Shown piece by piece: positions 18,536 through 36,033 of a stretch of DNA of 64,000 nt. The notes below the pieces were generated by a model. That model saw only the letters and a list, made by a program, of their open reading frames with translations. It ran no database searches and was not told where the DNA came from. The position numbers were made by a program, and so were the translations under genes. The DNA is from a phage, in sequence record OZ335960.1; one strand, written 5' to 3'. Within the stretch, counting starts at the first letter, position 1. Each line of letters begins with the position of its first letter.

Positions 18536-18578
18536 ATTATTTTCCTCTTTAATCATCAGCAGTATTGCCGATAGTCGT

Positions 18579-18607
18579 ATAGTACCACAGTTCTTATAGT
18601 ATGTAAA
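18579..18607 (-). promoter_or_regulatory. T4-type early promoter (conserved cassette copy)
   Basis: Minus strand TTTACA, 17 nt, TACTAT within the conserved ...GTTTACA...CTGTGGTACTATAC... cassette. Confidence 0.6.
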
Positions 18608-18631
18608 CAACTTTGTGAAAAAATTTTTGAA

Positions 18632-18658
18632 ATAAAAAAGGGGACCTCTAGGGTCCCC
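18632..18658 (-). terminator. rho-independent terminator downstream of gene 32
   Basis: Minus strand GGGGACC-CUAGA-GGUCCCC followed by a U-run. Confidence 0.65.
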
Positions 18659-18680
18659 AATTAATTAGTAATATAATCTA

Positions 18681-19589: not shown

Positions 19590-19656
19590 TTTTATTTCCT
19601 TTTTAATTTAATTAACAGTTGGTGCTATGACGATGTATGACCTCATAGCTGGTCAG
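19590..19656 (-). promoter_or_regulatory. gene 32 translational operator (5' pseudoknot plus unstructured A/U-rich leader)
   Basis: Leader contains GACCAGCUAUGAGGUCAUACAUCGUCAUAGCAC followed by AACUGUUAAUUAAAUUAAAAAGGAAAUAAAA before the AUG; this is the known gp32 autoregulation site. Confidence 0.6.
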
Positions 19657-19662
19657 TGAGAT

Positions 19663-19687
19663 AATTATAATCTATTTATAATAAGCA
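19663..19687 (-). promoter_or_regulatory. overlapping late (TATAAATA) and MotA-box middle promoter elements for gene 32
   Basis: Minus strand TGCTTAT-TATAAATAGATT-ATAATT. Confidence 0.5.
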
Positions 19688-19688
19688 A

Positions 19689-20342
19689 TTAATACTTGCA
19701 AGATTTCACAGTTTCAATGAAAACACTTTTAGCTTTCTGCGAATCAATATTTAAAATTTTTCTATAAGCCTTTAACTTTATAGAATAATTATTCCAGACT
19801 AAATTATCAGTCTGTTCATCATGTTTATCAATTATATTTAAAAACGAATCAAGCAAGATAAACGTCTCAAACGAAATTATATTCGATTGAAGTAGTTTAA
19901 AAATATAACTTGATTGAACTTTTGGATTATAATCAAAGATTTCTTTAAAAGCAGAAACTTCAACTTTTTTACTAAAATAATAAATGTTGCGAATATCTTC
20001 TTCAAACTTAAATTTAATTTGCTTTAAGCGTCCGATATATTCACGATAAAACACAAGTGCATCAGCGTCAGAGATGTCACCAATCCAAGCATCTTGGTTA
20101 GCAACAAGATTGCTTATAAAGATTAAAGCAAGTTCCTTTAATTTATATTTTTCTGATAACTTCTGGAAAAAATACTTATCCCTTCGCTTTTGATAAGCGG
20201 CATCAGACACCCGCATGCACCAATTATACTTAATTACATCATACTTTCCATTCATATGTTGTTTTATCATTAAGTATAATTTATAAACTGATTTACCATC
20301 GATGTATCTTTCACCACCAGCAGGCATGCGGAGTTTAATCAT
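19689..20342 (-). CDS. 59: gp59 helicase loader
   Basis: 217 aa, T4 gp59 length and position between 32 and 33. Confidence 0.85.
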   Translation of the reverse strand: MIKLRMPAGGERYIDGKSVYKLYLMIKQHMNGKYDVIKYNWCMRVSDAAYQKRRDKYFFQKLSEKYKLKELALIFISNLVANQDAWIGDISDADALVFYREYIGRLKQIKFKFEEDIRNIYYFSKKVEVSAFKEIFDYNPKVQSSYIFKLLQSNIISFETFILLDSFLNIIDKHDEQTDNLVWNNYSIKLKAYRKILNIDSQKAKSVFIETVKSCKY

Positions 20343-20677
20343 AGTAGAAAATCTAATGTATTAGTTTTTTCACAACGAACAACAGAAGGACGTAAAAGAT
20401 TTTCGTCAATAGCTTCTGACTGAATTTTTTCAATTATACCCGAAGGAATAAATTTAGCAAATTGAGTTTCAGGAATAGAATTTTCTTCTAAGAATGCTGT
20501 TGTAGCTTCAAGATAACTCATTCCAAACTCTTCTACCATTTTTTCAATAATAAATCCATTTTCTTGGCGGTCAAGAAGCTTTGCAATTTCATCCTTTTCT
20601 TTCTTAATTGAAAGTTCTTTTTCTGAAAGACCGGTCTCATCGACCGGACGAATATCATTTAGAGAAAACTGTGTCAT
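20339..20677 (-). CDS. 33: gp33 late-transcription co-activator
   Basis: Track ORF trimmed to ATG 20677 (MTQFSLNDIR...) giving 112 aa. Confidence 0.8.
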   Translation of the reverse strand: MTQFSLNDIRPVDETGLSEKELSIKKEKDEIAKLLDRQENGFIIEKMVEEFGMSYLEATTAFLEENSIPETQFAKFIPSGIIEKIQSEAIDENLLRPSVVRCEKTNTLDFLL

Positions 20678-20924
20678 AAAGTTCAACTACCTCTTCAGTT
20701 TCAGCTTCAAACACATCGCGGTTATCTTTATGATACAAAGCTAACAGACGATTAAACATCTTACCATCAACGCCAAGTTCATCTTTGGCGCGAATTCGAA
20801 TATCTTTAATCAATTCATTATAGCCAGAAATTTTCAGTTTATGATCAGATGCTTCTTTAATAAATTTAGCCAAATCTTCGCCATGGATGGCTTCATCAAA
20901 TTCAACCATTTCTTTTTTAGCCAT
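20655..20924 (-). CDS. dsbA: DsbA double-stranded DNA-binding protein
   Basis: 89 aa; position between rnh and 33. Confidence 0.75.
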   Translation of the reverse strand: MAKKEMVEFDEAIHGEDLAKFIKEASDHKLKISGYNELIKDIRIRAKDELGVDGKMFNRLLALYHKDNRDVFEAETEEVVELYDTVFSK

Positions 20925-20932
20925 TATTCACC

Positions 20933-21850
20933 TCAAAATTCATTAATGCTATTAGTTAATTTAGAAAGACCCGCTTTTACAAAATATGAATAAATTTTGC
21001 CACGCGGTGGTAATTTATATGAATTATAGTAATTCACAATGTTTGAAGCAATATTATCAGGAATATAATCAAAATCAATTAGAACTAAATTTTCTTTATA
21101 ACGATTATATTCAGATTCTGTGAGAAGCACCTTAGCTTGATCACGGTCATTAGCAATAGCTTCGACAATAGATGTTTTCATTGAAGGAGTTCGTTCACCT
21201 TCAACTCTGGTAAACCAAAAGTCAGATCGTACTTTAACTGAAGCAACGTTATCCTTTTTGTCACCTTTAAGGATTTTAGTCATACAGTCAATTTCAGCAG
21301 AACCGCTTTTAATTTTAACCCATTTCTTGTGCATCGGTGACCATTGCTTAACATTTGGGTATTTATGAAGTTGAGTAAAGTCACCATCCGATGAAATGAT
21401 TAAAATCTTATGTCCTTCTAAAGAGAACTTTTTAACAAGAACAGCAATATGGTCATCTGCTTCATACTTATCAATATCCATAACGATGTATGGCATATAA
21501 GCTTTCAATTCATCTATAACTTTATGACTGGATTCAAAATAACCTTCCCAGTCCCAAGTAGATTCTTCTCGTGCTTTTCCACGGTTTTTCTTATAATAAT
21601 AAGCAAAATCACGACGCCAGTATCCAGATTTCGCGTTATCAATACACAGTACAATTTTAGTGTATCCAAGAGTTTTTGCTTTTTTGACATTAAACTTAAT
21701 TGAGTTCAATATCAAATGACGAACCATTGATAAATTAATTTTTTCTTTATCTGGAAAGTTTACCAAAGCAGTTGAAAGCGCAATTTGACTAAAGTCAATT
21801 AAGCAGATTCCTTCTTTGTAATCTTCATCCAGCATCATTTCTAAATCCAT
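20933..21850 (-). CDS. rnh: RNase H (5'-3' exonuclease/flap endonuclease)
   Basis: Track ORF (TTG start) trimmed to ATG 21850 with GAGG RBS giving 305 aa; FEN-family acidic residues. Confidence 0.9.
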   Translation of the reverse strand: MDLEMMLDEDYKEGICLIDFSQIALSTALVNFPDKEKINLSMVRHLILNSIKFNVKKAKTLGYTKIVLCIDNAKSGYWRRDFAYYYKKNRGKAREESTWDWEGYFESSHKVIDELKAYMPYIVMDIDKYEADDHIAVLVKKFSLEGHKILIISSDGDFTQLHKYPNVKQWSPMHKKWVKIKSGSAEIDCMTKILKGDKKDNVASVKVRSDFWFTRVEGERTPSMKTSIVEAIANDRDQAKVLLTESEYNRYKENLVLIDFDYIPDNIASNIVNYYNSYKLPPRGKIYSYFVKAGLSKLTNSINEF

Positions 21851-21912
21851 ATGAACCTCGTTCAATTAGTGAGATTTCTATTATATACTATCCAAATCTT
21901 AAAGTAAACAAG

Positions 21913-21920
21913 TATAAATA
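21913..21920 (+). promoter_or_regulatory. late promoter (TATAAATA) for gene 34
   Basis: Exact TATAAATA about 35 nt before the gene 34 RBS GGAG. Confidence 0.65.
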
Positions 21921-21954
21921 CTTATTATTGAAAACACAATAGGAGCCCGGGAGA

Positions 21955-24900
21955 ATGGCCGAGATTAAAAGAAAGTTCAGAGCAGAAGATGGTCTGGACG
22001 CAGGTGGCGATAAAATAATCAACGTAGCTTTAGCTGATCGTGCCGTAGGAACTGACGGTGTTAACGTTGATTACCTAATTCAAGAAAACACAGTTCAACA
22101 ATACGATCCAACTCGTGGATATTTAAAAGATTTTGTAATCATTTATGATAACCGCTTTTGGGCTGCTATAAATGATATTCCAAAACCAGCGGGAGCTTTT
22201 AATAGCGTACGTTGGAGAGCATTACGTACTGATGCAAACTGGACAACTGTTTCGTCAGGACCTTATCAATTAAAGTCAGGTGAATCAATTTCAGTTAATA
22301 CTGCAGCAGGAAATGATATCACATTTACTTTGCCAACTTCTCCAATTGATGGAGATACTATCGTTCTTCAAGATATTGGTGGAAAACCTGGAGTTAACCA
22401 AGTTTTAATTACCGCTCCAGTGCAAAGCATTGTAAATTTTAGAGGTCAGCAAGTACGATCAGTATTAATGACCCATCCAAAATCACAGATAGTTTTAATT
22501 TTTAGTAATCGTCTGTGGCAAATGTATGTTGCTGATTATAGCAGAGAAGCTGTAATTGTGACGCCAGCAAGTCTCTATCAGGCGCAGTCAAACGATTTTA
22601 TCGTACGCAGATTTACTTCTGCTGCTGCAATTAATATTAAACTTCCTAGATTTGCTAATCATGGCGATATTATTAATTTCGTTGATTTAGATAAATTAAA
22701 TCCTCTTTATCATACAATTGTCACGACATATGATGAAACAACTTCAGTACAAGAAGTTGGAACTCATTCTATTGAAGGTCGTACATCGATTGATGGTTTC
22801 TTGATGTATGATGATAATGAGAAATTATGGAGATTATTTGACGGGGATAGTAAAGCACGTTTACGCGTTATAACAACTAATTCTAATATTCGTCCAAACG
22901 AAGAAGTTATGGTATTTGGTGCGAATAATGGAACAACTCAAACAATTGAACTTCAGCTTCCGACCGATATTTCCATTGGCGATACTGTTAAAATTTCCAT
23001 GAATTACATGAGAAAAGGCCAAACAGTTAAAATAAAAGCTGCCGGTGAAGATAAAATTGCTTCTTCAGTTCAATTGCTGCAATTCCCAAAACGTTCAGAA
23101 TATCCACCTGAAGCTGAATGGGTGACTGTTCAAGAATTAGTTTTTAACGGTGAAACTAATTATGTTCCAGTTTTACAACTTGCTTATATCGAAGATTCTG
23201 ACGGAAAATACTGGGTTGTACAGCAAAACGTTCCAACTGTAGAAAGAGTTGATTCTTTAAATGATTCTACTAGAGCAAGATTAGGCGTGATTGCTTTAGC
23301 TACACAAGCTCAAGCTAACGTCGATTTAGAAAATTCTCCACAAAAAGAATTAGCAATTACTCCAGAAACATTAGCTAACCGTACTGCTACAGAAACTCGT
23401 AGAGGTATCGCAAGAATAGCAACCACTGCTCAAGTGAACCAGGACACTACATTCTCTTTTGCTGATGATATTATCATCACTCCTAAAAAGCTGAATGAAA
23501 GAACTGCTACAGAAACTCGTAGAGGTGTTGCTGAAATTGCTACGCAACAAGAAACTAATACAGGTACTGATGATACTACAATCATCACTCCTAAAAAGCT
23601 TCAAGCTCGACAAGGTTCTGAATCATTATCGGGTATTGTAACCTTTGTATCTACCGCGGGAGCTACTCCAGCTTCTAGTCGTGAATTAAATGGTACAAAT
23701 GTTTACAATAAAAACACTAATAATTTAGTTGTTTCGCCTAAAGCTCTGGATCAGTATAAAGCTACTCCAACACAGCAAGGCGCAGTAATTTTAGCAGTTG
23801 AAAGTGAAGTAATTGCTGGACAGAGTCAAGAAGGATGGGCAAATGCGGTTGTAACGCCAGAAACGTTACATAAAAAGACATCAACTGATGGAAGAATTGG
23901 TTTAATTGAAATTGCTACGCAAAGTGAAGTTAATACAGGAACTGATTATACTCGTGCAGTCACTCCTAAAACTTTAAATGACCGTAAAGCAACTGAAAGT
24001 TTAAGTGGTATAGCTGAAATTGCTACGCAAGTTGAATTCGACGCAGGCGTCGACGATACTCGTATCTCTACACCATTAAAAATTAAAACCAGATTTAATA
24101 GTACTGATCGTACTTCTGTTGTTGCTCTATCTGGATTAGTTGAATCAGGAACTCTCTGGGACCATTATACCCTTAATATTCTTGAAGCAAATGAGACACA
24201 GCGTGGTACACTTCGTGTAGCTACACAAGTTGAAGCTGCTGCAGGGACATTAGATAATGTTCTAATAACTCCTAAAAAGCTTTTAGGTACTAAATCTACT
24301 GAAGCGCAAGAAGGCGTTATTAAAGTTGCAACTCAAGTTGAAACTGTAGCTGGAACGTCAGCAAATACTGCTGTATCTCCAAAAAATTTAAAATGGATTG
24401 TACAGAGTGAACCTACTTGGGCAGCAACTACTTTGATAAGAGGTTTTGTTAAAACTTCATCTGGTTCAATTACATTCGTCGGTAATGATACCGTTGGTTC
24501 AACACAGTCATTAGAATTATACGAGAAAAATAGCTATGCAGTATCTCCATATGAATTAAACCGTGTATTAGCAAATTATTTGCCGTTAAAGGCAAAAGCT
24601 GCTGACACGAATTTATTGGATGGTCTAGATTCATCCCAGTTCATTCGTAGGGATATTGCGCAGACGGTTAATGGTTCACTAACCTTAACTCAACAAACGA
24701 ATCTGAGTGCCCCTCTTGTATCATCTAGTACTGCTACGTTTGGTGGATCAGTTTCGGCAAATAGTACACTAACTATTTCTAATACTGGAACAGCAACTAA
24801 ATTGATTTTTGAGAAAGGACCTCAAACTGGAACGAACCCAGCGCAGACGATGACTGTCAAAGTGTGGGGAAATCAATTTAGTGGGGAATCAGATACAACA

Positions 24901-25824
24901 CGTTCTACTGTATTTGAAGTTAGTGATGAAACGTCTAGTCATTTTTATTCTCAGCGCAATAAAGCTGGTAATATAACATTTAATATCAACGGTACAGTAA
25001 CTCCGATAAATGTTAATGCTTCAGGAACATTGAATGCAAATGGTGTAGCAACATTTGGTAATTCAGTCACTGCAAGTGGTGAAATTATTTCTCGAAGCGC
25101 AAATGCTTTCCGTGCTATTAACGGAAATTATGGTTTTATTGTTCGCAATGACGGGTCAGTAACGAATTTTATGCTTACTGCATCGGGCGATCAGACTGGT
25201 GGATTTAATGGATTACGTCCATTAACTATTAATAATGCATCTGGTCAAGTAACGATTGGTGAAAGCTTAATCATTGCCAAAGGTGCTACTATAAATTCAG
25301 GTGGTTTAACTGTTAACTCGAGAATTCGTTCTCAGGGTACTAAAACATCTGATTTATATACCCGTGCGCCAACATCTGATACTGTAGGATTCTGGTCAAT
25401 CGATATTAATGATTCAGCTACTTATAACCAGTTCCCAGGTTATTTTAAAATGGTTGAAAAAACTAATGAAGTGACTGGACTTCCATACTTAGAACGTGGC
25501 GAAGAAGTTAAATCTCCTGGTACATTGACTCAGTTTGGTAACACACTCGATTCGCTTTACCAAGATTGGATTACTTATCCAACGACTCCAGAAGCACGTA
25601 CCACTCGCTGGACACGTACATGGCAGAAAACCAAAAACTCTTGGTCAAGTTTTGTTCAGGTATTTGATGGAGGTAACCCTCCTCAACCGTCTGATATCGG
25701 TGCTTTACCATCTGATAATGCTACAATGGGGAATCTTACTATTCGTGATTTCTTACGAATTGGTAATGTTCGCATTATTCCTGACCCAGTGAATAAAACG
25801 GTTAAATTTGAATGGGTTGAATAA
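21955..25824 (+). CDS. 34: long tail fibre proximal subunit gp34
   Basis: 1289 aa; late promoter TATAAATA at 21913; near-identical to recalled T4 gp34 over long stretches. Confidence 0.95.
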   Translation: MAEIKRKFRAEDGLDAGGDKIINVALADRAVGTDGVNVDYLIQENTVQQYDPTRGYLKDFVIIYDNRFWAAINDIPKPAGAFNSVRWRALRTDANWTTVSSGPYQLKSGESISVNTAAGNDITFTLPTSPIDGDTIVLQDIGGKPGVNQVLITAPVQSIVNFRGQQVRSVLMTHPKSQIVLIFSNRLWQMYVADYSREAVIVTPASLYQAQSNDFIVRRFTSAAAINIKLPRFANHGDIINFVDLDKLNPLYHTIVTTYDETTSVQEVGTHSIEGRTSIDGFLMYDDNEKLWRLFDGDSKARLRVITTNSNIRPNEEVMVFGANNGTTQTIELQLPTDISIGDTVKISMNYMRKGQTVKIKAAGEDKIASSVQLLQFPKRSEYPPEAEWVTVQELVFNGETNYVPVLQLAYIEDSDGKYWVVQQNVPTVERVDSLNDSTRARLGVIALATQAQANVDLENSPQKELAITPETLANRTATETRRGIARIATTAQVNQDTTFSFADDIIITPKKLNERTATETRRGVAEIATQQETNTGTDDTTIITPKKLQARQGSESLSGIVTFVSTAGATPASSRELNGTNVYNKNTNNLVVSPKALDQYKATPTQQGAVILAVESEVIAGQSQEGWANAVVTPETLHKKTSTDGRIGLIEIATQSEVNTGTDYTRAVTPKTLNDRKATESLSGIAEIATQVEFDAGVDDTRISTPLKIKTRFNSTDRTSVVALSGLVESGTLWDHYTLNILEANETQRGTLRVATQVEAAAGTLDNVLITPKKLLGTKSTEAQEGVIKVATQVETVAGTSANTAVSPKNLKWIVQSEPTWAATTLIRGFVKTSSGSITFVGNDTVGSTQSLELYEKNSYAVSPYELNRVLANYLPLKAKAADTNLLDGLDSSQFIRRDIAQTVNGSLTLTQQTNLSAPLVSSSTATFGGSVSANSTLTISNTGTATKLIFEKGPQTGTNPAQTMTVKVWGNQFSGESDTTRSTVFEVSDETSSHFYSQRNKAGNITFNINGTVTPINVNASGTLNANGVATFGNSVTASGEIISRSANAFRAINGNYGFIVRNDGSVTNFMLTASGDQTGGFNGLRPLTINNASGQVTIGESLIIAKGATINSGGLTVNSRIRSQGTKTSDLYTRAPTSDTVGFWSIDINDSATYNQFPGYFKMVEKTNEVTGLPYLERGEEVKSPGTLTQFGNTLDSLYQDWITYPTTPEARTTRWTRTWQKTKNSWSSFVQVFDGGNPPQPSDIGALPSDNATMGNLTIRDFLRIGNVRIIPDPVNKTVKFEWVE
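23383..23600 (+). repeat. internal direct repeats in gene 34
   Basis: Identical 24-mer ACTGCTACAGAAACTCGTAGAGGT at 23383 and 23503; ATCATCACTCCTAAAAAGCT at 23473 and 23581; encode repeated TATETRRG and IITPKKL peptide motifs. Confidence 0.6.
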
Positions 25825-25832
25825 GAGGTATT

Positions 25833-26948
25833 ATGGAAAAATTTATGGCAGAGTTTGGACAAGGATATGTCCAAACGCCATTTTTATCGGAAAGTAATTC
25901 AGTAAGATATAAAATAAGTATAGCGGGTTCTTGCCCGCTTTCTACGGCAGGACCATATGTTAAATTTCAGGATAATCTTGTCGGAAGTCAAACATTTAGC
26001 GCAGGTCTTCATTTAAGAGTTTTTGATCCTTCCACCGGAGCATTAGTTGACAGTAAGTCATATGCTTTTTCGACTTCAAATGATACTACATCAGCTGCTT
26101 TTGTTAGTTTCATGAATTCTTTTTCAAACAACAGACTTGTTGCTATATTAACTAATGGAAAGGTTAATTTTCCTCCTGAGGTAGTATCTTGGCTAAGAGC
26201 TGCAGGAACGTCTGCTTTTCCATCTGATTCTATATTGTCAAGATTTGACGTATCATATGCTGCCTTTTATACTTCTTCCAAAAGAGCTATTGCATTAGAA
26301 CACGTTAAACTAAGTAATAGAAAAAGCACAGATGACTATCAAACTATTTTAGATGTTGTATTTGACAGTTTAGAAGACGTTGGAGCTACAGGATTTCCTA
26401 AAAGAACATACGAAAGCGTTGAGCAATTTATGTCAGCAGTCGGTGGAACTAATAACGAAATTGCACGTTTACCAACTTCATCTGCGATAAGTAAACTCTC
26501 TGATTATAATTTAATTCCTGGCGATGTTCTTTATCTTAAAGCGCAGTTATATGCTGACGCAGATTTACTTGCGCTTGGAACTACAAATGTATCAATCCGT
26601 TTTTATGATGAATCGAATGGATATATTTCTTCAACACATGCCGAGTTTACTGGACAAGCTGGGTCATGGGAATTAAAGGAAGATTATGTAGTTATTCCAG
26701 AAAATGCAGTAGGATTTACGATATATGCACAAAGAACTGCACAAGCAGGTCAAGGCGGCATGAGAAATTTAAGCTTTTCTGAAGTATCAAGAAATGGTGG
26801 AATTTCAAAACCTGCTGAATTTGGCGTCAATGGTATTCGAGTTAATTATGTCTGTGAATCTGCTTCACCTCCGGATATAATGGTACTTCCTACGCAAGCA
26901 TCGTCTAAAACTGGTAAAGTGTTTGGACAAGAATTTAGAGAAGTTTAA
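25833..26948 (+). CDS. 35: long tail fibre hinge (knee) protein gp35
   Basis: 371 aa; RBS AAGAGGT; follows gene 34. Confidence 0.9.
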   Translation: MEKFMAEFGQGYVQTPFLSESNSVRYKISIAGSCPLSTAGPYVKFQDNLVGSQTFSAGLHLRVFDPSTGALVDSKSYAFSTSNDTTSAAFVSFMNSFSNNRLVAILTNGKVNFPPEVVSWLRAAGTSAFPSDSILSRFDVSYAAFYTSSKRAIALEHVKLSNRKSTDDYQTILDVVFDSLEDVGATGFPKRTYESVEQFMSAVGGTNNEIARLPTSSAISKLSDYNLIPGDVLYLKAQLYADADLLALGTTNVSIRFYDESNGYISSTHAEFTGQAGSWELKEDYVVIPENAVGFTIYAQRTAQAGQGGMRNLSFSEVSRNGGISKPAEFGVNGIRVNYVCESASPPDIMVLPTQASSKTGKVFGQEFREV

Positions 26949-26953
26949 ATTGA

Positions 26954-26979
26954 GGGAGCCTTCGGGTTCCCTTTTTCTT
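26954..26979 (+). terminator. rho-independent terminator after gene 35
   Basis: GGGAGCC-UUCG-GGUUCCC followed by UUUUUCUUU. Confidence 0.6.
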
Positions 26980-26987
26980 TATAAATA
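26980..26987 (+). promoter_or_regulatory. late promoter (TATAAATACTATT) for genes 36-37-38
   Basis: Exact TATAAATA with the extended late consensus, directly after the terminator. Confidence 0.6.
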
Positions 26988-27010
26988 CTATTAAAATAAA
27001 GGGGCATACA

Positions 27011-27667
27011 ATGGCTGATTTAAAAGTAGGTTCAACAACTGGAGGCTCTGTCATTTGGCATCAAGGAAATTTTCCATTGAATCCAGCCGGTGACGATGTA
27101 CTCTATAAATCATTTAAAATATATTCAGAATATAATAAACCACAAGCTGCTGATAACGATTTCGTTTCTAAAGCTAATGGTGGTACGTATTTAAATAAAG
27201 TAATTTTTAATAAAGGAATGACTGTTCCTGGTGCAGGGTCAGGTGACAATGGTATTTTTGCTGGTCCTGGTGATAATGCCACGTATGATACTACAAATAT
27301 GGATATTGTTTCATGGTATGGTATTGGTTTTAAATCATCGCAGGGTTCAGCAGGTAGAACTGTAGTAATTAACACACGAAATGGAGATATTAGCTCAAAG
27401 GGTGTAATTGAAGCATCACAAATACGCGCAACTTCATTATCTCCAGTAAATAATTATGACCTTACGCGGAAAGATTATGTCGATGGAGCAATAAATATTG
27501 TTACAGCAAACGCAAACTCTAGGGTATTACGCTCTGGAGACACTATGACAGGTAACTTAACCGCGCCAAACCTTTTTTCACAGAATCCTGCATCTCAACC
27601 CTCACATGTTCCACGATTTGATCAAATTGTTATTAAGGATTCTGTTCAAGATTTCGGCTATTATTAA
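27011..27667 (+). CDS. 36: long tail fibre distal connector gp36
   Basis: 218 aa; late promoter at 26980 and terminator hairpin of gene 35 upstream. Confidence 0.9.
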   Translation: MADLKVGSTTGGSVIWHQGNFPLNPAGDDVLYKSFKIYSEYNKPQAADNDFVSKANGGTYLNKVIFNKGMTVPGAGSGDNGIFAGPGDNATYDTTNMDIVSWYGIGFKSSQGSAGRTVVINTRNGDISSKGVIEASQIRATSLSPVNNYDLTRKDYVDGAINIVTANANSRVLRSGDTMTGNLTAPNLFSQNPASQPSHVPRFDQIVIKDSVQDFGYY

Positions 27668-27675
27668 GAGGACTT

Positions 27676-29125
27676 ATGGCTACTTTAAAACAAATACAAT
27701 TTAAAAGAAGCAAAACCGCAGGAGCACGTCCTGCCGCTTCAGTATTAGCCGAAGGTGAATTGGCTATAAACTTAAAAGACCGCGTACTTTTTACTAAAGA
27801 CGACCAAGGAAATATCATTGATCTTGGTTTTGCTAAGGGCGGTAGTATTGACGGGAATGTTATTCATATAGGAAACTATAATCAAACTGGTGATTATACT
27901 TTAAATGGCACCTTCACTCAGACGGGTAATTTTAATTTAATCGGTATTGCTCGAGTAACTCGCGATATTATTGCCGCCGGGCAGATTATGACCGAAGGCG
28001 GAGAACTTATTACAAAAAGTTCAGGTACATCACATGTTCGTTTTTTCGATAGCAATAGCCGCGAGCGCGGAATCATTTATTCTCCTGCTAATGATGGATT
28101 AACTACACAAGTACTTAATATCAGGGTTCAAGACTACGCCGCTGGTAGCGAAAGCACCTATGCATTTTCAGGCAATGGCCTATTTACTTCACCTGAAGTA
28201 TCAGCATGGAAATCTATGTCAACTCCTCAGATTTTGACCGATAAAGTTATTACAGATGGGAAGAAGACAGGCGATTATGACATCTATTCATTAGCAAATA
28301 ACACTCCATTGGCAGAAAGCGAAACGGCTATTAACCACCTCCGTGTTATGCGAAATGCCGTAGGATCTGGTATATTCCATGAAGTTAAAGATAACGACGG
28401 GATAACCTGGTACGCCGGTGACGGATTAGATGCCTATCTTTGGTCGTTTACCTGGTCCGGTGGATTGAAAGCAGGCCATTCTATTTCTATAGGTCTTCCG
28501 GGCGGCTCTAAAGGATATTCTGAATTAGGGACTGCTTCGATTGCTCTTGGTGATAATGATACTTGGTGATAATGATACTGGTTTAGTCCATGGCGGTGAT
28601 GGCCGAATCAATATGGTTGCCAATGGTATACATATTGCAAACTGGGGCGCAGGCTATCAATCTCATCCTGGGCTTTGGGATTCAACCGGTGCTTTTTGGA
28701 CAGAAGTTGGAAGAGCTATCGTTTCTCATGGGCATCTCGTTCAGGCAAATGATAGTTATTCAACGTTTGTCCGTGATGTTTATGTCCGTTCTGATATTCG
28801 CGTTAAAAAAGACCTCGTTAAATTTGAAAATGCTTCTCAGAAGCTTTCTAAAATTAACGGTTACACTTATATGCAGAAGCGAGGCCTAGATGGAGAAGGT
28901 AATCAGAAATGGGAACCTAACGCTGGTTTAATTGCTCAAGAAGTTCAAGCTATTTTACCAGAATTAGTTGAAGGCGACCCTGATGGCGAAGCTTTACTTC
29001 GTTTGAACTATAACGGTGTAATTGGTTTAAATACAGCTGCAATCAATGAGCATACCGCAGAAATTGCAGAACTTAAATCAGAAATCGAAGAACTTAAAGC
29101 ATTAGTTAAATCGTTGTTAAAATAA
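27676..29125 (+). pseudogene. 37: long tail fibre distal subunit gp37, frameshifted by a 16-bp tandem duplication; C-terminal intramolecular-chaperone-like domain
   Basis: N-terminal frame 27676-28569 (297 aa, MATLKQIQFKRSK... conserved gp37 N-terminus) ends at TGA created by the duplication; the +1 frame continues LGDNDTGLVHGG... to 29125 and ends with an SDIRVKKD...GLIAQEVQ... domain. Confidence 0.7.
28547..28578 (+). repeat. perfect 16-bp tandem duplication (TTGGTGATAATGATAC x2) inside gene 37
   Basis: Copy 1 at 28547-28562, copy 2 at 28563-28578; creates in-frame TGA at 28567-28569. Confidence 0.9.
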
Positions 29126-29156
29126 TAAGAGGGGCTTCGGTCCCTTGGAGGTTTAT

Positions 29157-29951
29157 ATGGCAGTTGAAGGACCGTGGGTAGGATGGTCTGCAGTAGTTAA
29201 TACAGGACAAAATTGGATGGGTGGTGCGGCCCAACGATTAAGAATGGGCATTCCGTTCTGGATGAGTAATATGATAGGTCGATCCGTTGAAGTAATTCAC
29301 ACACTTGGAGCAGACCATAACTTCAATGGTCAATGGTTCCGAGATAGATGTTTTGAGGCAGGTAGTGCACCCATAGTGTTTAATATCACAGGAAATTTGG
29401 TATCATATTCTAGAGATGTTCCTTTATTCTTCATGTATGGAGATACACCAAATGAATATGTTCAGTTGAATATTAGCGGTGGAGCTCATATGTGGGGCAG
29501 AGGTGGACAAGGTGGGTGGACTCATTCTGGTGGAGATGGTAATGGTCAACAGGGTGGACATTGTATTCAAAATGACATTGGTGGTCGATTAAGAATTAAT
29601 AATGGTGGAGTAATTTGTGGCGGCGGTGGCGGCGGTGGCGGCATCGCTTATCGTCCTCACTCTGGTGCAAACTGGCAAGATATTGGTGGCGGTGGAGGAA
29701 GACCATTTGGCCCAGGAGGTGGCGGTGGTTATTCAGGAGGTGCTGCTTCTTATGACGGTCCAGGAGGCGGTTATAATTATGGTAATGCTCACTCTGGACA
29801 GGGTGGTGATGCTGGCGGAAATGGACAAAATGCCTGGTATGATGGTGGTAAAGTTCTAAAAGTTGGCGCTGGCGGGGCTGCAGGTTATGCTGTAATAGGG
29901 TCTGCTCCAACATGGCAAAATGTTGGAATAATATATGGTCCAAGAGTATAA
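29157..29951 (+). CDS. 38: T2-type receptor-binding adhesin gp38 with glycine-rich motifs
   Basis: Track ORF starts at TTG 29145; ATG at 29157 with GGAGG RBS gives 264 aa; conserved N-terminal attachment region then poly-Gly runs (GGGGGGGG, GGGGG) separating variable segments. Confidence 0.8.
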
Positions 29952-29982
29952 TTTTGAATAAATATCCTTAAAAGGAGGGTCT

Positions 29983-30639
29983 ATGGCAGCACCTAGAATA
30001 TCATTTTCGCCCTCTGATATTCTGTTTGGTGTTCTAGATCGCTTGTTCAAAGATAACGCTACCGGGAAAGTTCTTGCTTCCCGGGTAGCTGTCGTAATTC
30101 TTTTGTTTATAATGGCGATTGTTTGGTATAGGGGAGATAGTTTCTTTGAGTACTATAAGCAATCAAAGTATGAAACATACAGTGAAATTATTGAAAAGGA
30201 AAGAAATGCACGCTTTGAATCTGTCGCCCTGGAACAACTCCAGATAGTTCATATATCATCTGAGGCAGACTTTAGTGCGGTGTATTCTTTCCGCCCTAAA
30301 AACTTAAACTATTTTGTTGATATTATAGCATATGAAGGAAAATTACCTTCAACAATAAGTGAAAAATCACTTGGAGGATATCCTGTTGATAAAACTATGG
30401 ATGAATATGCAGTTCATTTAAATGGACGTCATTATTATTCCAACTCAAAATTTGCTTTTTTACCAACCAAAAAGCCTACTCCCGAAATAAATTACATGTA
30501 CAGTTGTCCATATTTCAATTTGGATAATATCTATGCTGGAACAATAACCATGTACTGGTATAGAAATGATCATATAAGTAATGACCGCCTTGAATCAATA
30601 TGTGCTCAGGCGGCCAGAATATTAGGAAGGGCTAAATAA
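29983..30639 (+). CDS. t: holin
   Basis: 218 aa; single N-terminal TM segment and large C-terminal domain; RBS AAGGAGGG. Confidence 0.9.
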   Translation: MAAPRISFSPSDILFGVLDRLFKDNATGKVLASRVAVVILLFIMAIVWYRGDSFFEYYKQSKYETYSEIIEKERNARFESVALEQLQIVHISSEADFSAVYSFRPKNLNYFVDIIAYEGKLPSTISEKSLGGYPVDKTMDEYAVHLNGRHYYSNSKFAFLPTKKPTPEINYMYSCPYFNLDNIYAGTITMYWYRNDHISNDRLESICAQAARILGRAK

Positions 30640-30912
30640 TTATTTGTTCGTATACATCTCTAGATATCGATATACACCCTCAAAACCCTCGTTGAATTCG
30701 TCGATGAGGGTTTTCTTATCTTCTTGAGTTAATTCAGAAACAATTTTACGGAATGAATTCTGATTTAACTTTCTACCTTCATGCGTTACTCCAATCTCAT
30801 TCAGAAATGCAATAAAATTAGCGCGATTCTCAACAATATCTTCTCTGGAAAATTTAATCAAAATAGACGCAACAGTAATAATTTCACGAACTGTATCAAT
30901 ATTTTTATTCAT
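30640..30912 (-). CDS. asiA: anti-sigma-70 factor AsiA
   Basis: 90 aa; matches recalled T4 AsiA; convergent with and abutting t. Confidence 0.9.
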   Translation of the reverse strand: MNKNIDTVREIITVASILIKFSREDIVENRANFIAFLNEIGVTHEGRKLNQNSFRKIVSELTQEDKKTLIDEFNEGFEGVYRYLEMYTNK

Positions 30913-30924
30913 TAACTATACCAC

Positions 30925-31077
30925 TCAATTAGTTGACTTTGTTATAATATCATCAGACGCTTGATTTGTAAACTGGTCTGTGGTATTTTCTTCAAAAATT
31001 TTTTCTACGAATTCCTTGAACGACTTACGTTCCTGAGCTACATTATGCTCGATTACTTTTTCAAGATTATGACTCAT
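30925..31077 (-). CDS. small hypothetical protein (below track cutoff)
   Basis: Hand translation MSHNLEKVIEHNVAQERKSFKEF... 50 aa; ATGA overlap with the arn stop; contains the asiA promoter in its 3' part, so coding status is uncertain. Confidence 0.3.
   Translation of the reverse strand: MSHNLEKVIEHNVAQERKSFKEFVEKIFEENTTDQFTNQASDDIITKSTN
30944..30972 (-). promoter_or_regulatory. T4-type early promoter for asiA
   Basis: Minus strand GTTTACA, 17 nt, TATTAT about 30 nt before the asiA start. Confidence 0.55.
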
Positions 31078-31352
31078 TCGAAATAATCTTCAATTTCATA
31101 ATCAAGGACATAAATCATTATAGTTTTTAATACATCATCAATACTTTTTCCTGGAGCTGGAATTACGTAAAAATATCCTGCTTTTGAGAGGTCTTTATAA
31201 GTTCCAACCAAGAAATCATTATTCTCGAGATGTAGTTCTTCAACTAATTCATTAACAATTGAGTTGTATAAATTTGGTAGAAACTTATATAGCTTTTCTA
31301 GAATATCAATTTTGATTGTGTATTGAACCACAGATTGAGAATCAATAATCAT
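31074..31352 (-). CDS. arn: Arn anti-restriction protein (McrBC inhibitor)
   Basis: 92 aa, strongly acidic; RBS AAGGGGAAGG; matches recalled T4 Arn. Confidence 0.8.
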   Translation of the reverse strand: MIIDSQSVVQYTIKIDILEKLYKFLPNLYNSIVNELVEELHLENNDFLVGTYKDLSKAGYFYVIPAPGKSIDDVLKTIMIYVLDYEIEDYFE

Positions 31353-31435
31353 AGACCTTCCCCTTATGTTTCTGTTTGCGATTAGATTCTTTAAACGCTT
31401 TCTTCTTATCTTTATGGACAGAAGCTTTATTAAAA

Positions 31436-31654
31436 TTATGTTTTGCGACTAAATTGTTCATAGTGCTGAATTACCTCTCTCAAACATTTGCATGTGAATG
31501 AAAACTTTTTAGCTACACCACATTCAAATATATGTTCTCTTAAATCACGTGTGTCAGTATATCCCATCTCAACAATAAAATGCCGTATTAGATTTTTATC
31601 TTTATCATTGAGAGAATTAAAATAATCGGATTTTGAATTAATTTCCCTGGCCAA
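31436..31654 (-). CDS. hypothetical protein
   Basis: ORF track 72 aa. Confidence 0.4.
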   Translation of the reverse strand: MAREINSKSDYFNSLNDKDKNLIRHFIVEMGYTDTRDLREHIFECGVAKKFSFTCKCLREVIQHYEQFSRKT

Positions 31655-31934
31655 ATTGAATCACCTTCAGTTGACGTTTTAGTTCTTTTATCATCTCTTC
31701 GTTCATCGCAATATAAAGATCGCGTAAAGCAGGTTTTAGCATTCCATTTACTGGAGAACTAAATGGACATACATAATCTTTTCCTACGAGCTTTTTAGTG
31801 AATTCCATGTCACAGAACTGAAATGCCGGTTCATTGGCATAAATTCCCCAATTAGTTGACATCATTTTATTGGCATATTCCAACGCCTGGATTTGATTCA
31901 TAATTCCGTCAATTTGAAACTTTTTAATATTCAT
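31638..31934 (-). CDS. hypothetical protein
   Basis: ORF track 98 aa. Confidence 0.45.
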   Translation of the reverse strand: MNIKKFQIDGIMNQIQALEYANKMMSTNWGIYANEPAFQFCDMEFTKKLVGKDYVCPFSSPVNGMLKPALRDLYIAMNEEMIKELKRQLKVIQFGQGN

Positions 31935-32395
31935 TAGTAAAGGTCCTCAGAGTAAAGTTCTTTTTCACTACCACCGCGTTCAATACGTACTTGTCCAGCA
32001 TAAGTTGCAATAATCATTGCTTCTTCGCGGGTCCAATAATTACTATATTGGTCAATAAACCCTTGGTCATCATCACAAACTTGTTGAGTAACTAATTGAG
32101 GTTTAACTACATCTAAAACTTCTGCCATATCTTTAGAATAATGACGAGCACCTGGAATAACAAGATTTCGACCATCTTTTAATTTAAAACGGTTGGCGGC
32201 ACAAACAATTCGTCGTTGATACTTTTGGTTTTCGTCCCAATACGCAGTCTGCCAACAGATTTCAGGAACTTCTTTCAGAATATCTTCTTCTGTGCATTTA
32301 TAACCATGTGCTTTAAATTTTTCAACAAGACTTTCTGGAGTTTCACGAGATAAAGGAACATTCAGCATTTTTAAACGATTAATAAATGGGTTCAT
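31934..32395 (-). CDS. hypothetical protein
   Basis: ORF track 153 aa. Confidence 0.5.
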
Positions 32396-32721
32396 TTAAG
32401 CCATCCTTTAATACGCTGCCACAAAGTTTTCTGTTGAGCTTTGTTAATACCAATTGAGCGAATAACTGGTTGAGATTCCTGGAATTCTTTATAATCAGCA
32501 AGGTAAATTTCGTAAGCTGCATCCGTAAATGAACTTATCGCCGCCATAAAATTATTGCGAATACCTACTGGAGCATCTTTACTTTCACGAATAATCATGT
32601 ATTTACCAGTCTTAATCTTTACGATAGTTCCAAGATAAGCTCCATGGTACCAGATGTCCCACCCCTCTTGAGTGGGTTCTGCACAACGACGAAGTTCATT
32701 GATAATTTCTAACTTGTTCAT
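32392..32721 (-). CDS. hypothetical protein
   Basis: ORF track 109 aa. Confidence 0.45.
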
Positions 32722-32731
32722 TATTTATTCC

Positions 32732-33367
32732 TCACAGTTCAGATGCTACGGTGATTACTGCTTCAATGTTTTCTGCCGAGCGTTTAATGTCAAGATACAC
32801 ATTACCGTTTTTAGCGATTTTACATGACATTCCGATATCAGTAAATTTCTGAATATAGTGTTCCATCATTTTGTATCCAAAAATTCGCATATTTCCGTTG
32901 TTGTTAATTTCAAAATTGCGAATTCCGTGAGTACGTTTTTCTAAAATAGCAAGATAGTTACTGCGGTAAGTTTCAACCTTTTTAAGAACAAATCCATTTT
33001 CATCTAAAAGTTTTAACATGAAGTCTTTATCTTCTTCCATATCGGAAGTAATCTCACGAGCTTTACGAGTTGCTCGTTTTTTCAGTAGTTCAGGAGCATT
33101 TTCCTGTGCGTATAAAGTTGCCGCATTTGAAATAATATCCTGAGCTTCACCAGTAATGATTAATCCATCACCGGATTTCTCCACCAGGCCTTTTTTAATC
33201 AATACCCCAATATTACTATTAACTACTGCATTACCTAAATCTGGATGCACCTCACGAACTTCTGCAGCTGTAATGAAATCTTTCTTAGCAATGGTAATTA
33301 AAATTGCAGCAGTTTTTTCATTCAGAACATCGTTAGAAGCTTTGATGATGTAAGTTACTTTAGACAT
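32732..33367 (-). CDS. motA: MotA middle-transcription activator
   Basis: 211 aa; early promoter copy immediately upstream; matches recalled T4 MotA. Confidence 0.9.
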   Translation of the reverse strand: MSKVTYIIKASNDVLNEKTAAILITIAKKDFITAAEVREVHPDLGNAVVNSNIGVLIKKGLVEKSGDGLIITGEAQDIISNAATLYAQENAPELLKKRATRKAREITSDMEEDKDFMLKLLDENGFVLKKVETYRSNYLAILEKRTHGIRNFEINNNGNMRIFGYKMMEHYIQKFTDIGMSCKIAKNGNVYLDIKRSAENIEAVITVASEL

Positions 33368-33408
33368 TTTCTAATCTCCGTAATTCTGTATCAGTAGTTG
33401 ATAGTTGT

Positions 33409-33437
33409 ATAGTACCACAGTATGCTTTGGTTGTAAA
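33409..33437 (-). promoter_or_regulatory. T4-type early promoter for motA (conserved cassette copy)
   Basis: Conserved cassette ...GGTTTACA...CTGTGGTACTATACAACTATCAACTACTGATAC... Confidence 0.6.
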
Positions 33438-33463
33438 CCGTTTTGTGAAAAAATTTTTGAAAT

Positions 33464-33489
33464 AAAAAAGGGAGAGCCTCAGCTCTCCC
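33464..33489 (-). terminator. rho-independent terminator downstream of gene 52
   Basis: Minus strand GGGAGAGC-UGAG-GCUCUCCC followed by a U-run. Confidence 0.6.
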
Positions 33490-33494
33490 TAAAA

Positions 33495-33644
33495 TTACTG
33501 CATGACTGTGATAACTGTCATGATAACACGTTGAATTCCGAACGCAAGAAGACCTCCTGCTACGGCAGGAACAACACCTAAACCCGCCAGTAAAATGCTA
33601 CCAGATACTAATGCAGCGCTTGTAATACCAATGAATGGACTCAT
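33495..33644 (-). CDS. small hydrophobic membrane protein (below track cutoff)
   Basis: Hand translation MSPFIGITSAALVSGSILLAGLGVVPAVAGG... 49 aa; ATGA overlap with the gene 52 stop; terminator hairpin directly downstream. Confidence 0.35.
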   Translation of the reverse strand: MSPFIGITSAALVSGSILLAGLGVVPAVAGGLLAFGIQRVIMTVITVMQ

Positions 33645-34969
33645 TTGATTTCCTCTAAATCTTTGGTGTATTCTGTAACTACATCAGTAGTTTTCCAATA
33701 TTCGTTTTCTTCTTTCTTAGCTTTAGCTTCTTCGGCAAGTTTCTTTGCTTCGTCGGAAGTCATATGAAAAATATTCATTCCGACTAGTTTATCAACATAA
33801 GAAGAATACATATCAATTTTAGAAAGTTCTTCGGTCAGTTCTTTGCGAGTTTTACCTTGCACAACAATTTCACCTGAAATTACTTTCTTAATGAAATGTG
33901 CCTTGGCAAAAGCTAAACGAAATGCTGATTCAGTTTCTTTGATTTTGTTATCAATTCGTTTTTGGACATAAGTTTTACGAACTTCAACGAAGTCTTTGAT
34001 TAAATCAACTACATTATCGTAAACTTGCAGCTTTCCTTTCTCATTAATAACGGTGATATTCTGGGAACGACGCTCAATCAACCCAAAGTCTTTCATGATT
34101 TTTGCGTGGCGTTCTTCTTCGTTATCGCTCAAAGAATATTCTTTGCGGAATTTAACTTTGAAGCCAAAACCATGCTCACCACAAGCATCATCCCACGTAA
34201 TGAAGCCTTTATCTTCAAGCGGGTCTAAGATTTTACTCACATAAGTTTCACGATCATACTTATACGGAATCTCAGTGATATGCATTTGAGTTCGTGAAGT
34301 AAACTTGTATGTTCCACGAATTTCATATTGACCGTCAATTTCAACGACTTCACCACGAAATTCTGGGAATTCTACCTTCGGTTTAGTTACTTTCTTTCCT
34401 TGAAGAGCTTGCAATACAGCTTTCTTGACAGAAGAAACACTATGAGGAAGAATGTAAGTTGCATAACCAGTTGCAATACCGGAAACACCATTAAGAAGAA
34501 CAGTAGGAATAATAGGCAAATAGAAAGCAGGCGGAATGTGTTCTTTATCTTGATGTACCGGAGCATATTCAGTATCTTTATATACACTATAGAAATTTTT
34601 ACTTACACGAGCAAAAATATAACGACTTGCCGCTGCTTTTTGAACGGTACGAGAACCAAAGTTTCCTTGACCATCTAACAAAGGAAAGTTATTATTCCAA
34701 GTATTAGCCATCAAAGCACCTGCGTCTTGCGCAGAGTTTTCACCATGATGATATCCAAGGTCTGCTACACCACCTGCAATAGAAGCGAGTTTGTGAAACT
34801 TATCTTTATTTCCTCGTGCCAAATCAAGAGCTCGAGCAATAACAAATCGTTGAACTGGCTTAAATCCATCAATCATATTTGGGATAGCACGATTTTCAAC
34901 CGTGTACATAGCATAAGCCAATGCTTCATTATCAATGATACTTTTTAAATCGCGATTATTCAGTTGCAT
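33641..34969 (-). CDS. 52: DNA topoisomerase II medium subunit gp52
   Basis: 442 aa; GyrA-like active-site tyrosine region. Confidence 0.9.
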   Translation of the reverse strand: MQLNNRDLKSIIDNEALAYAMYTVENRAIPNMIDGFKPVQRFVIARALDLARGNKDKFHKLASIAGGVADLGYHHGENSAQDAGALMANTWNNNFPLLDGQGNFGSRTVQKAAASRYIFARVSKNFYSVYKDTEYAPVHQDKEHIPPAFYLPIIPTVLLNGVSGIATGYATYILPHSVSSVKKAVLQALQGKKVTKPKVEFPEFRGEVVEIDGQYEIRGTYKFTSRTQMHITEIPYKYDRETYVSKILDPLEDKGFITWDDACGEHGFGFKVKFRKEYSLSDNEEERHAKIMKDFGLIERRSQNITVINEKGKLQVYDNVVDLIKDFVEVRKTYVQKRIDNKIKETESAFRLAFAKAHFIKKVISGEIVVQGKTRKELTEELSKIDMYSSYVDKLVGMNIFHMTSDEAKKLAEEAKAKKEENEYWKTTDVVTEYTKDLEEIK

Positions 34970-35106
34970 AAATTTACCATACTAGTGAATGTAGTGCCAT
35001 AATAACATCAGAAATGAAAAGCACGACTTGAATTAATCCGAACATTACTCCATAATATAGTGCTACCAATAAAGTAGCAAGGGCTAATGAATAGCCCAAG
35101 ATTTTC

Positions 35107-35265
35107 TTAATCATTAGTAGATAACAACACAAATGTTAAATATGCACACATACCCTGGGCTAAAGCTTGTGAAAACACACTGCTAGCATCAATACAGATA
35201 GTTAAAACACATGCTACTATCCAACAAACAAATGAAATAACTCCTAATAATTTTGCGATATTCAT
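35107..35265 (-). CDS. small inner-membrane protein, ac-like
   Basis: Track ORF trimmed to ATG 35265 (RBS GAGGAGAA) giving 52 aa; hydrophobic; tandem paralog of the next ORF. Confidence 0.5.
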   Translation of the reverse strand: MNIAKLLGVISFVCWIVACVLTICIDASSVFSQALAQGMCAYLTFVLLSTND

Positions 35266-35275
35266 AATATTCTCC

Positions 35276-35431
35276 TCAACTATTTTTAGAACCAATGTAC
35301 GCGAATAATGATAAAATCGCTAATACGCCCTGAGCTGATGCTTGCAAAAATACTGAAGTTTCTCCAGTTATTACTGTTCCGATGCATAAAAAGAACCAAC
35401 AGAAAAAGGCTATACCGTGAACAAATTTCAT
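35276..35431 (-). CDS. small inner-membrane protein, ac-like paralog (below track cutoff)
   Basis: Hand translation MKFVHGIAFFCWFFLCIGTVITGETSVFLQASAQGV... 51 aa; shares FxCW...SVF.QA.AQG with the adjacent ORF. Confidence 0.45.
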   Translation of the reverse strand: MKFVHGIAFFCWFFLCIGTVITGETSVFLQASAQGVLAILSLFAYIGSKNS

Positions 35432-35438
35432 ATTTTCC

Positions 35439-35519
35439 TCACTGGCGTCCGAAGACGCCTTTGGTTTTAAGATTATTACGATAGAACTGCATCACGTGTT
35501 CGTTATGGAAATTACTCAT
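35439..35519 (-). CDS. stp: Stp peptide (activator of the host PrrC anticodon nuclease)
   Basis: Hand translation [26 protein letters not shown], 26 aa, matches recalled T4 Stp; start overlaps the ndd stop. Confidence 0.8.
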
Positions 35520-35974
35520 TAGTATGCCTGCAAAACAAATTTAAAGTTATCAGCCAACATACGGTTCATTTCTTCAAGCGTTTGATATTCAGAATGATGA
35601 TTACGAGTAAACGCTAAAGCTAACTGGCCTTTTCCAAATCCTGTCGTCAGAGGTTTCATCTTAGAAGCAGGTAGATAAAATACTGTATATGGAACATTAT
35701 TATTTGCAATAGTACGCGCAAGCTGAGACCGACGCTGACGAATATGACTTAGAACTGCACTGAATCCTTGCTTAGAACGCTGATTACCTACATAAAATCG
35801 TGCAGATACACACGGACTATCAAATGGACCACCAAATTTACTCACTAAAAAGTAAAATCCAGGTGTAGATAAAATGTCTTTATGTGGAGTTCCAAAAACC
35901 CATTCACCGCCCTTGATTGTACCAATAACAGTAGCACCTGCATTATTCAAATCAGTAACAGTCATGTATTTCAT
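35519..35974 (-). CDS. ndd: nucleoid disruption protein
   Basis: 151 aa, matches recalled T4 Ndd. Confidence 0.85.
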
Positions 35975-36033
35975 ATTAATTTCCTCTAATTATTTTCTAC
36001 TCCAAGGCCGCATGAATACACACGGCCGATAAA

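Follow-up and report, generated by a model that had tools for sequence, protein, structure and literature searches.

Background

Gene 37 is essential for plaque formation, as is known from T4 genetics. In gene 37 of T-even phages, exchange at His boxes and the duplication of small domains were reportedly described by Tétart et al. in 1996 and 1998; the 1996 paper is cited in PMC8573959. In phage PP01, internal deletions of 579-686 nt in gp37 had appeared in each of the four evolved lines by passage 2-3; they were viable, went to fixation and improved adsorption (PMC6027323). Naturally shorter gp37 proteins occur in HY01, UFV-AREG1 and Ec_MI-02, and the large distal tail fiber subunit of Salmonella phage vB_SenM-AKM_NP4 (P0013) has 749 aa. 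A tip fragment of the gp37 of phage S16 forms triangular and interdigitated beta-helix domains, the docking site of the gp38 adhesin (PMC6851490). The literature search returned no description of a truncated or split Tequatrovirus gp37 beyond the PP01 deletions, and none of a role for the GDNDT motif, in recombination or otherwise.

Contigs produced by graph assemblers can carry overlap artefacts at their ends when terminal overlaps are not trimmed as a circular or permuted genome is closed, and the usual artefact of this kind has a length of k or k-1. Cut-and-paste closing or re-orienting of genomes is common practice (e.g. PMC8573959). The ends of some public T-even records lie in the gp37-gp38 region: gp37 of ECO4 is marked 'partial', and in ESh16 the record stops within gp38.

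Here we describe gene 37 as it is written in a 64-kb stretch of phage DNA (the window), where a preliminary description had flagged a frameshifting tandem duplication. We conclude that the duplication is most likely not real. The relationship of its two copies to two motifs that are dispersed in the gene 37 of relatives is described, together with a one-copy allele from an independent genome and a simulation of the assembly.

Results

The fibre cluster and the doubled 16-mer

The window derives from a T-even (Tequatrovirus) genome and has the long-tail-fibre genes in the order 34-35-36-37-38-t. Gene 38 assigns the phage to the S16/T2/PP01 fibre type, in which the receptor is bound by gp38 and not by gp37. 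The features of the cluster are as follows.

21955-25824: gene 34, 1289 aa (ORF list)
25833-26948: gene 35 (ORF list)
27011-27667, + strand: gene 36, hinge connector, 218 aa, intact (ORF list; single clean full-length tblastn HSP to pSs-1 gp36)
27676-28569, + strand: gene 37 N-terminal part, 297 codons, conserved domain through GDNDT box 1 (nucleotide identity to relatives)
28547-28562, + strand: box copy 1 (R1), encodes (L)GDNDT, gp37 codons ~291-296
28556-28558, + strand: ATG inside box copy 1, in frame with the C-terminal part, 11 nt upstream of the TGA (direct reading)
28562-28563, + strand: junction, at which ~1862 nt of the relatives' sequence are missing (comparison with relatives)
28563-28578, + strand: box copy 2 (R2), encodes (I)GDNDT, opens the C-terminal tip module (homology start, 6F45_A alignment)
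28567-28569, + strand: premature TGA of the N-terminal frame
28563-29125, + strand: gene 37 C-terminal part, in the +1 frame relative to the N-terminal part; gp38-docking tip and self-cleaving chaperone domain
28790-28969, + strand: Peptidase_S74 intramolecular chaperone domain, SDIRVKKD... (Pfam PF13884, E = 2.2e-12)
29157-29951, + strand: gene 38 adhesin, 264 aa, Gp38_N and GP38 domains, intact (Pfam PF21721 and PF05268; ORF list)
29983-30639: holin t (ORF list)

Both parts of gene 37 are well conserved. Positions 27676-28562 share 92-97.6% nucleotide identity with gp37 nt 1-887 of Sfk20, ESh16, KNP5, PP01 and others, and the C-terminal part shares 95-98.5% with the 3' end of gp37 in Ec_YwIITB1, sb4, ESh16 and others. 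Residues 913-1102 of pSs-1 gp37 match frame 2 of the window in tblastn. The gene is recognizable as gp37 by the N-terminal domain that follows gene 36 and by the C-terminal docking tip and chaperone; the central shaft is absent.

An exact search of the window found TTGGTGATAATGATAC as two adjoining copies, at 28547-28562 and 28563-28578, and no third site even with one mismatch allowed. None of 100 shuffles contained at least two matches. Tandem Repeats Finder (TRF) reported a period of 16, 2.1 copies and a 100% match. The pair is the sole perfect tandem duplication with a unit of at least 10 nt in the window, for which the composition-aware chance expectation is ~5.5e-5. The ORF at 27676-28569 terminates as ...IALGDNDTW*, and a second-frame ORF at 28541-29125 translates as ...LGDNDTGLVHGGDG...; the premature TGA follows from the 16-nt offset between the frames. 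Deletion of one copy in silico yields a single ORF of 1434 nt and 477 aa, in which Peptidase_S74 spans residues 367-426. Cleavage by this domain at ...VYVR|SDIRVKK would leave a mature gp37 of ~366 aa, against ~990 aa for the full-length form. On all of these points the preliminary description holds: it had the coordinates and frames of the perfect 16-bp repeat right, it had the N-terminal frame stop at 28567-28569 and the other frame run to 29125, and it had put the single-copy ORF at about 477 aa. As written, gene 37 consists of two ORFs in different frames and has no uninterrupted gp37 frame. We agree with the earlier view that no complete distal half-fibre would be made from the gene in this form.

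The shaft between two GDNDT boxes is missing

A megablast search of 50,697 phage records with 27676-29125 matched 629 records. In nearly all records listed, the match to the N-terminal part ends at query position 887 or 888, which is 28562 or one base past it. The lone exception is ESH35, where it extends 12 nt further to query position 899. The C-terminal part is matched in 181 records as a second place in the same record, mostly from 28563 and in a few cases from 28550. The short form of gp37 was found in none of the 629 matching records, and none covers at least 80% of the gene in one place.

Thirteen relatives were read at gp37 (Sfk20, pSs-1, Ec_YwIITB1, KNP5, ESH35, PP01, ESh16, P8, ZJUN4, bov9_1, Ec_MI-02, JE01 and LF82-1). 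All thirteen have a gp37 of 900-1109 aa; in Shigella phage Sfk20 the gene is 3312 nt long and encodes 1103 aa. Exactly two GDNDT boxes are present in 11 of the 13, and the other two, JE01 and LF82-1, have the first box only and another C-terminal module. Box 1 lies at codon 292 (IALGDNDTGFKWHQDG), or 264 in the shorter-annotated CDS of Ec_YwIITB1. Box 2, with the sequence (V/I)IGDNDTGLVHGGDG, lies at codons 715-924 and at about codon 918 in most relatives; the R2 16-mer is found at gp37 nt 2666-2768. The spacing between boxes is 1875-1896 nt in 10 relatives and 1269 nt in the naturally shorter Ec_MI-02, and it is always a multiple of three. Across the two-box relatives the longest exact nucleotide repeat shared by the boxes ranges from 2 to 23 nt. 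R1 is the exact 16-mer followed by C in P8, and R2 is the exact 16-mer followed by T in Sfk20, KNP5 and YwIITB1, and a parent whose boxes share a repeat of just 16 nt is therefore natural.

In the relatives R1 is followed by ...GFKWHQDG and then by a shaft segment, B, of ~1.86 kb. The layout of the gene is thus A-R-R-C in the window against A-R-B-R-C in the relatives, with ~1862 nt, ~620 codons of shaft and 57% of the gene absent between the boxes. A tblastn search with residues 297-912 of pSs-1 gp37 found no counterpart anywhere in the window, which places segment B nowhere else in it. The Gp34_trimer-like domain PF21446 is found in Sfk20 gp37 and not in the one-copy product. Having lost 57% of its length, the predicted 477-aa product is not a normal gp37. 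Variation in the gene is greatest in segment B, and relatives match the flanks only; the first ~50 nt of B are still conserved, and tblastn matches continue to residues 312-321.

Judged from the sequence, the copies in the window did not arise by slippage duplication but represent the two GDNDT boxes that are dispersed in the gene of relatives, here placed next to each other. The local, slippage-type duplication of the preliminary description does not fit this pattern, in which each copy matches one of two separate pre-existing boxes of gene 37. Repeats stand at both end points in the undeleted relatives, as for a deletion between short repeats, and the single copy that such a deletion has at its junction is not what the window carries.

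The sequences that follow the two boxes are alike for ~20 residues more, with the pattern GDNDTG-x6-DG-x4-V-x-NG (BLASTP E = 7e-5). A box-to-box fusion would therefore swap one structural element for its homologue in register. The crystallised tip fragment of gp37 from Salmonella phage S16 (PDB 6F45, chain 6F45_A) aligns to residues 914-1103 of Sfk20 gp37 and starts at the equivalent box, SIAIGDNDTGLRWGGDG. Such a fusion would retain the chaperone as well as the end that binds gp36 and the tip on which gp38 docks, and its product would presumably fold.

A one-copy allele in an independent genome

A search with the one-copy product retrieved a protein of 477 aa with 88% identity over 100% coverage (P0001). 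It is carried on a metagenomic T-even contig of 165,631 bp (ERZ28583736 scaffold_47, hereafter L007) in which genes 34, 35, 36, 38 and t are intact. L007 is collinear with positions 18269-29464 of the window at 94.5% nucleotide identity. Its junction reads ...ATTGCTC TTGGTGATAATGATAC CGGATTAGTTCATGG..., with a single box and in frame. The C-terminal part is of the pSs-1/PP01-like allele in L007 (CGGATTAGTT) and of the Sfk20-like allele in the window (TGGTTTAGTC), so the short genes of L007 and the window are independent events. The mini-gp37 of L007 shares with the window the N-terminal domain, the GDNDT box, the tip, the S74 chaperone, the synteny 34-35-36-37-38-t and the collinear flanks. 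It differs in its one box copy, its intact frame and its C-terminal allele.

The protein is on record from both the ENA and the Logan assemblies, and a second contig of 20-50 kb also carries it. We take the Logan assemblies to use k = 31. A repeat of at most 23 nt cannot make a chimeric 31-mer, and the one-copy junction of L007 is therefore probably supported by reads in that sample.

Box-to-box deletion is rare, with L007 as the one other example and 0 of 629 among the isolate records. A degenerate search for the one-copy in-frame junction found none in IMG/VR, JGI metagenomes or GTDB genomes, and a protein-guided scan of IMG/VR returned full-length or partial gp37 genes only. The two-copy junction was found in none of IMG/VR, the JGI metagenomes, the GTDB genomes, the 50,697 phage records and 5,426 E. 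coli genomes; the search of the E. coli genomes gave only an unrelated gp38-like match. Exact protein look-ups with the window's gp34, gp35, gp38 and truncated gp37 likewise found none of them in the gene index.

The remainder of the window

A window with errors throughout was considered and rejected, with gp37 alone being frameshifted. Of the 115 pSs-1 CDS collinear with the window, 101 gave one clean full-length tblastn HSP. The exceptions comprise paralogue cross-hits, absent or diverged accessory genes, a CDS that runs past the window edge and the hypervariable half of gp38. Among the 115 CDS compared, no gene but gene 37 is divided between two frames. Because the other genes are clean, the lesion is an isolated event at a special place and not one of many errors.

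A simulated join of contig ends reproduces the window

Assembly was simulated with an error-free de Bruijn graph at k = 31 and k = 55, using the flanks from the window and segment B from Sfk20. A pure full-length genome and a pure deletion genome each gave one unitig at both values of k, so that the 16-nt repeat by itself is harmless to assembly. A mixture of the two gave four unitigs: A ending in ...GCTCTTGGTGATAATGATAC, C starting with TTGGTGATAATGATACTGG..., B of ~1.9 kb and a junction of 44-92 nt. The junction unitig would be dropped by any length filter. A butt join of the A and C unitigs equals positions 20001-36000 of the window exactly, which makes the join mechanism sufficient. In the simulated mixture the duplicated stretch is the sequence common to the two joined ends, as it is in a join artefact.

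The exact match requires that B start with C, which is true of Sfk20, PP01 and P8. With the TGG start of B that is seen in KNP5, 19 nt are duplicated and not 16. The exact R1 with the start of B had no match in IMG/VR and was found instead in phage P8. A crude reference-coverage route, emulated with BLAST, left 14 extra bases and did not reproduce the window; it is ranked below the butt join.

Discussion

The doubled 16-mer is a junction scar and not a duplication, and the doubling is probably an artefact. The account that we favour, with a confidence somewhat above even, is that contig ends were joined over a real box-to-box deletion polymorphism. The sequenced population would have held the box-to-box recombination deletion A-R-C, which encodes an in-frame mini-gp37 of 477 aa, probably alongside full-length genomes. 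The PP01 deletions arise fast and become fixed, which makes mixed populations plausible. The assembly graph would break at the deletion point, with one end finishing in R and the other starting with R, and the two would overlap by 16 nt. Where the genome is circularly permuted, as in T-even phages, a single unresolved bubble would become the start and end of the assembled contig. Head-to-tail joining of these ends, for example in closing or re-orienting the genome, would write R twice, and the frameshift would then have no counterpart in the DNA. We infer that the record was produced by this route and that the deletion allele was present in the sample. As a counterpoint to this account, careful pipelines would have noticed the leftover contig of ~1.9 kb.

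Alternatively, gp37 of the phage could be ordinary, at ~1100 aa, with no deletion allele present, and B could have been lost in assembly, scaffolding or reference-guided consensus. The hypervariable shaft could, for instance, have failed to map to a reference or formed a separate contig, after which the flanks were pasted together. Full length is indeed the state of the isolates checked (0 of 629 short; 13 of 13 at 900-1109 aa), B varies more than any other part of the gene, and public records do break in the gp37-gp38 region. However, a repeat of 16-23 nt in a single genotype breaks no graph at k = 31 or 55, and ends that lie exactly on the box edges are left without explanation. Loss by mapping would be expected to retain more of B, given the conservation of its first ~50 nt, and the emulated coverage-based consensus fails to give the exact R-R. 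We regard this alternative as unlikely. It is similarly doubtful that the genome truly carries a null gene 37, with a shaft deletion of ~1.86 kb and both boxes kept, although the two-copy sequence is itself what was recorded and the rest of the window has no signs of sloppy assembly. T-even phages readily recombine and delete within gp37 (PMC6027323), and a one-copy precursor exists in nature. The allele could have arisen by one illegitimate event, or by an in-frame box-to-box deletion and a subsequent 16-nt tandem duplication; the second route amounts to the duplication of the preliminary description moved to a mini-gp37 background. In one step, one break would have to coincide with the end of R1 and the other with the start of R2, with no more than ~1 nt of microhomology there, and a homology-driven deletion leaves a single copy, as in L007. 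In two steps, an allele that is rare (0 of 629) would have to acquire a duplication that matches the box unit exactly and is lethal. The junction was found in none of the other collections searched. Such a genome would be adsorption-defective and could be maintained only at low frequency, by a helper or for a very short time; as gene 37 is essential, the consensus sequence of a propagated phage would not be expected to carry a null allele.

The frameshift could also be functional, either with programmed frameshifting or stop-restart yielding a fibre, or with the two-copy and one-copy forms acting as a phase-variable adsorption switch. Sixteen is not a multiple of three, a perfect tandem repeat can collapse by recombination to the 477-aa ORF, and there is an in-frame ATG (28556) 11 nt upstream of the TGA. 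But the context ...ACT TGG TGA has no slippery heptamer and no prfB-like CUU-UGA, and the ATG has no properly spaced Shine-Dalgarno sequence, which makes a role in restart speculative. Two unlinked fragments presumably could not build a continuous fibre. The junction is unique to the window and is not conserved, and copy number is constant in the 13 relatives, at one unit per box. We find a functional frameshift hardly credible. It is also very unlikely that the two-box allele is real and heritable, with the whole shaft shed and the abutting boxes forming an unstable off state that reverts to the mini-fibre. A milder reading, to which we give about even chances, is that only the in-frame mini-gp37 is real here, as it seems to be in L007, and that the GDNDT boxes are natural break points for fibre resizing. 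Of the three origins offered in the preliminary description, assembly error has become the favoured one, and the reversible adsorption-off switch has found no support.

A frameshifting adsorption switch would have been striking; the evidence instead favours an error in the record at the site of a structural polymorphism. The gp37 of this record should not be annotated as split or as a pseudogene before the junction is re-sequenced. What gives the underlying event moderate interest is the independent occurrence of the 477-aa allele in a phage genome of 165 kb that is otherwise intact. The entire variable shaft of gp37 lies between the GDNDT boxes, and an in-frame fusion of the two yields a 477-aa product in which every known interaction module is kept. 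If functional, mini-fibres would define a minimal distal half-fibre. They would also provide a design rule for fibre length in T-even phages of the gp38 type and extend the observation from PP01 that a shorter shaft goes with faster adsorption.

Relationship to known systems

The doubled box resembles the contig-end overlap artefacts of graph assemblers in that a short exact sequence is doubled at a join and its length is that of the shared sequence. Unlike in the usual artefact, that length is dictated by a biological repeat of 16 nt, which a structural polymorphism has exposed. The box-to-box fusion resembles the motif-mediated recombination of Tétart et al., where recombination at short conserved motifs in fibre genes adds, removes or exchanges modules with the frame kept, although the GDNDT boxes differ from the His boxes. 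The fibre tip of S16 is homologous to the C-terminal part in the window, with the S74 chaperone after the beta-helix domains. The gp37 of S16 is a full fibre subunit, whereas in the window the tip would adjoin the N-terminal domain directly.

The closest parallel is PP01, which belongs to the same group as the window phage (Tequatrovirus, gp38 adhesin) and whose gp37 N-terminal part is 92% identical at the nucleotide level. Its deletion at nt 1945-2650 lies inside the inter-box shaft (888-2767), and the segment missing from the window likewise lies between the boxes. The PP01 deletions remove ~20% of the gene and their end points are not the boxes, whereas the window lacks the whole inter-box segment of ~1862 nt and, as written, has its gene 37 out of frame. 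Internal shaft deletions of gp37 are a known kind of event, and the deletion underlying the window would be a new and extreme form of it.

Shorter gene 37 alleles and module exchange

The two GDNDT boxes of the distal long-tail-fibre subunit gp37, which close the N-terminal domain and open the tip respectively, are joined in frame in L007, an independent metagenomic T-even genome of 165.6 kb. This is the sole example of a box-fused in-frame allele across all collections searched.

L007 10001-11434 (ENA ERZ28583736 scaffold_47): intact gp37 gene, 477 aa

Naturally shorter gp37 genes are found in Ec_MI-02 (L023; 900 aa, with 1269 nt between the boxes) and in HY01, where the match extends over approximately 2.7 kb. 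In both, the shaft between the boxes is short by approximately 600 nt, and the missing region is the one lost by phage PP01 under laboratory passage (PMC6027323). Gene 37 of JE01 (L020) and LF82-1 (L024) shares the N-terminal domain and box 1, lacks box 2 and has a different C-terminal module. These two genes illustrate module exchange 3' of box 1.

Possible restart and assembly trouble at the gp37-gp38 locus

A stop-restart of gene 37 in the window is conceivable at an ATG located 11 nt before the premature TGA.

28556-28558: ATG inside box copy 1, in the frame of the C-terminal part of gp37

This ATG, however, lacks a well-spaced Shine-Dalgarno sequence. In several deposited T-even genomes the gp37-gp38 region is faulty: the gp37 of ECO4 (P0005) is annotated as partial at 482 aa, that of vB_EcoM_005 (P0002; 754 aa) has an aberrant end (...STRCCDVQ), and the ESh16 record (L018, ON528726) ends within gp38. 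These faults therefore suggest that the locus is a recurrent trouble spot for assembly.

Small repeats and paralogous ORFs

Short tandem repeats are present in gene 37 and in the downstream adhesin gene 38.

29058-29098: 21-nt tandem unit, two copies, 90% match, at the extreme end of gene 37
29617-29642: GTGGCGGCG, 2.9 copies, within gene 38

The former encodes AEIAELKSEIEELKALV, a heptad-like segment within the chaperone domain. The latter falls in the glycine-rich stretch of the adhesin and is likely a slippage-prone part of this host-range determinant.

Elsewhere in the window two small ORFs are mutual paralogues (cross-hits of 42% identity).

35110-35431, minus strand: two adjoining small ORFs, approximately 51-52 aa

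The same paired arrangement of paralogues is seen in gp3 and gp4 of the related T-even phage pSs-1.
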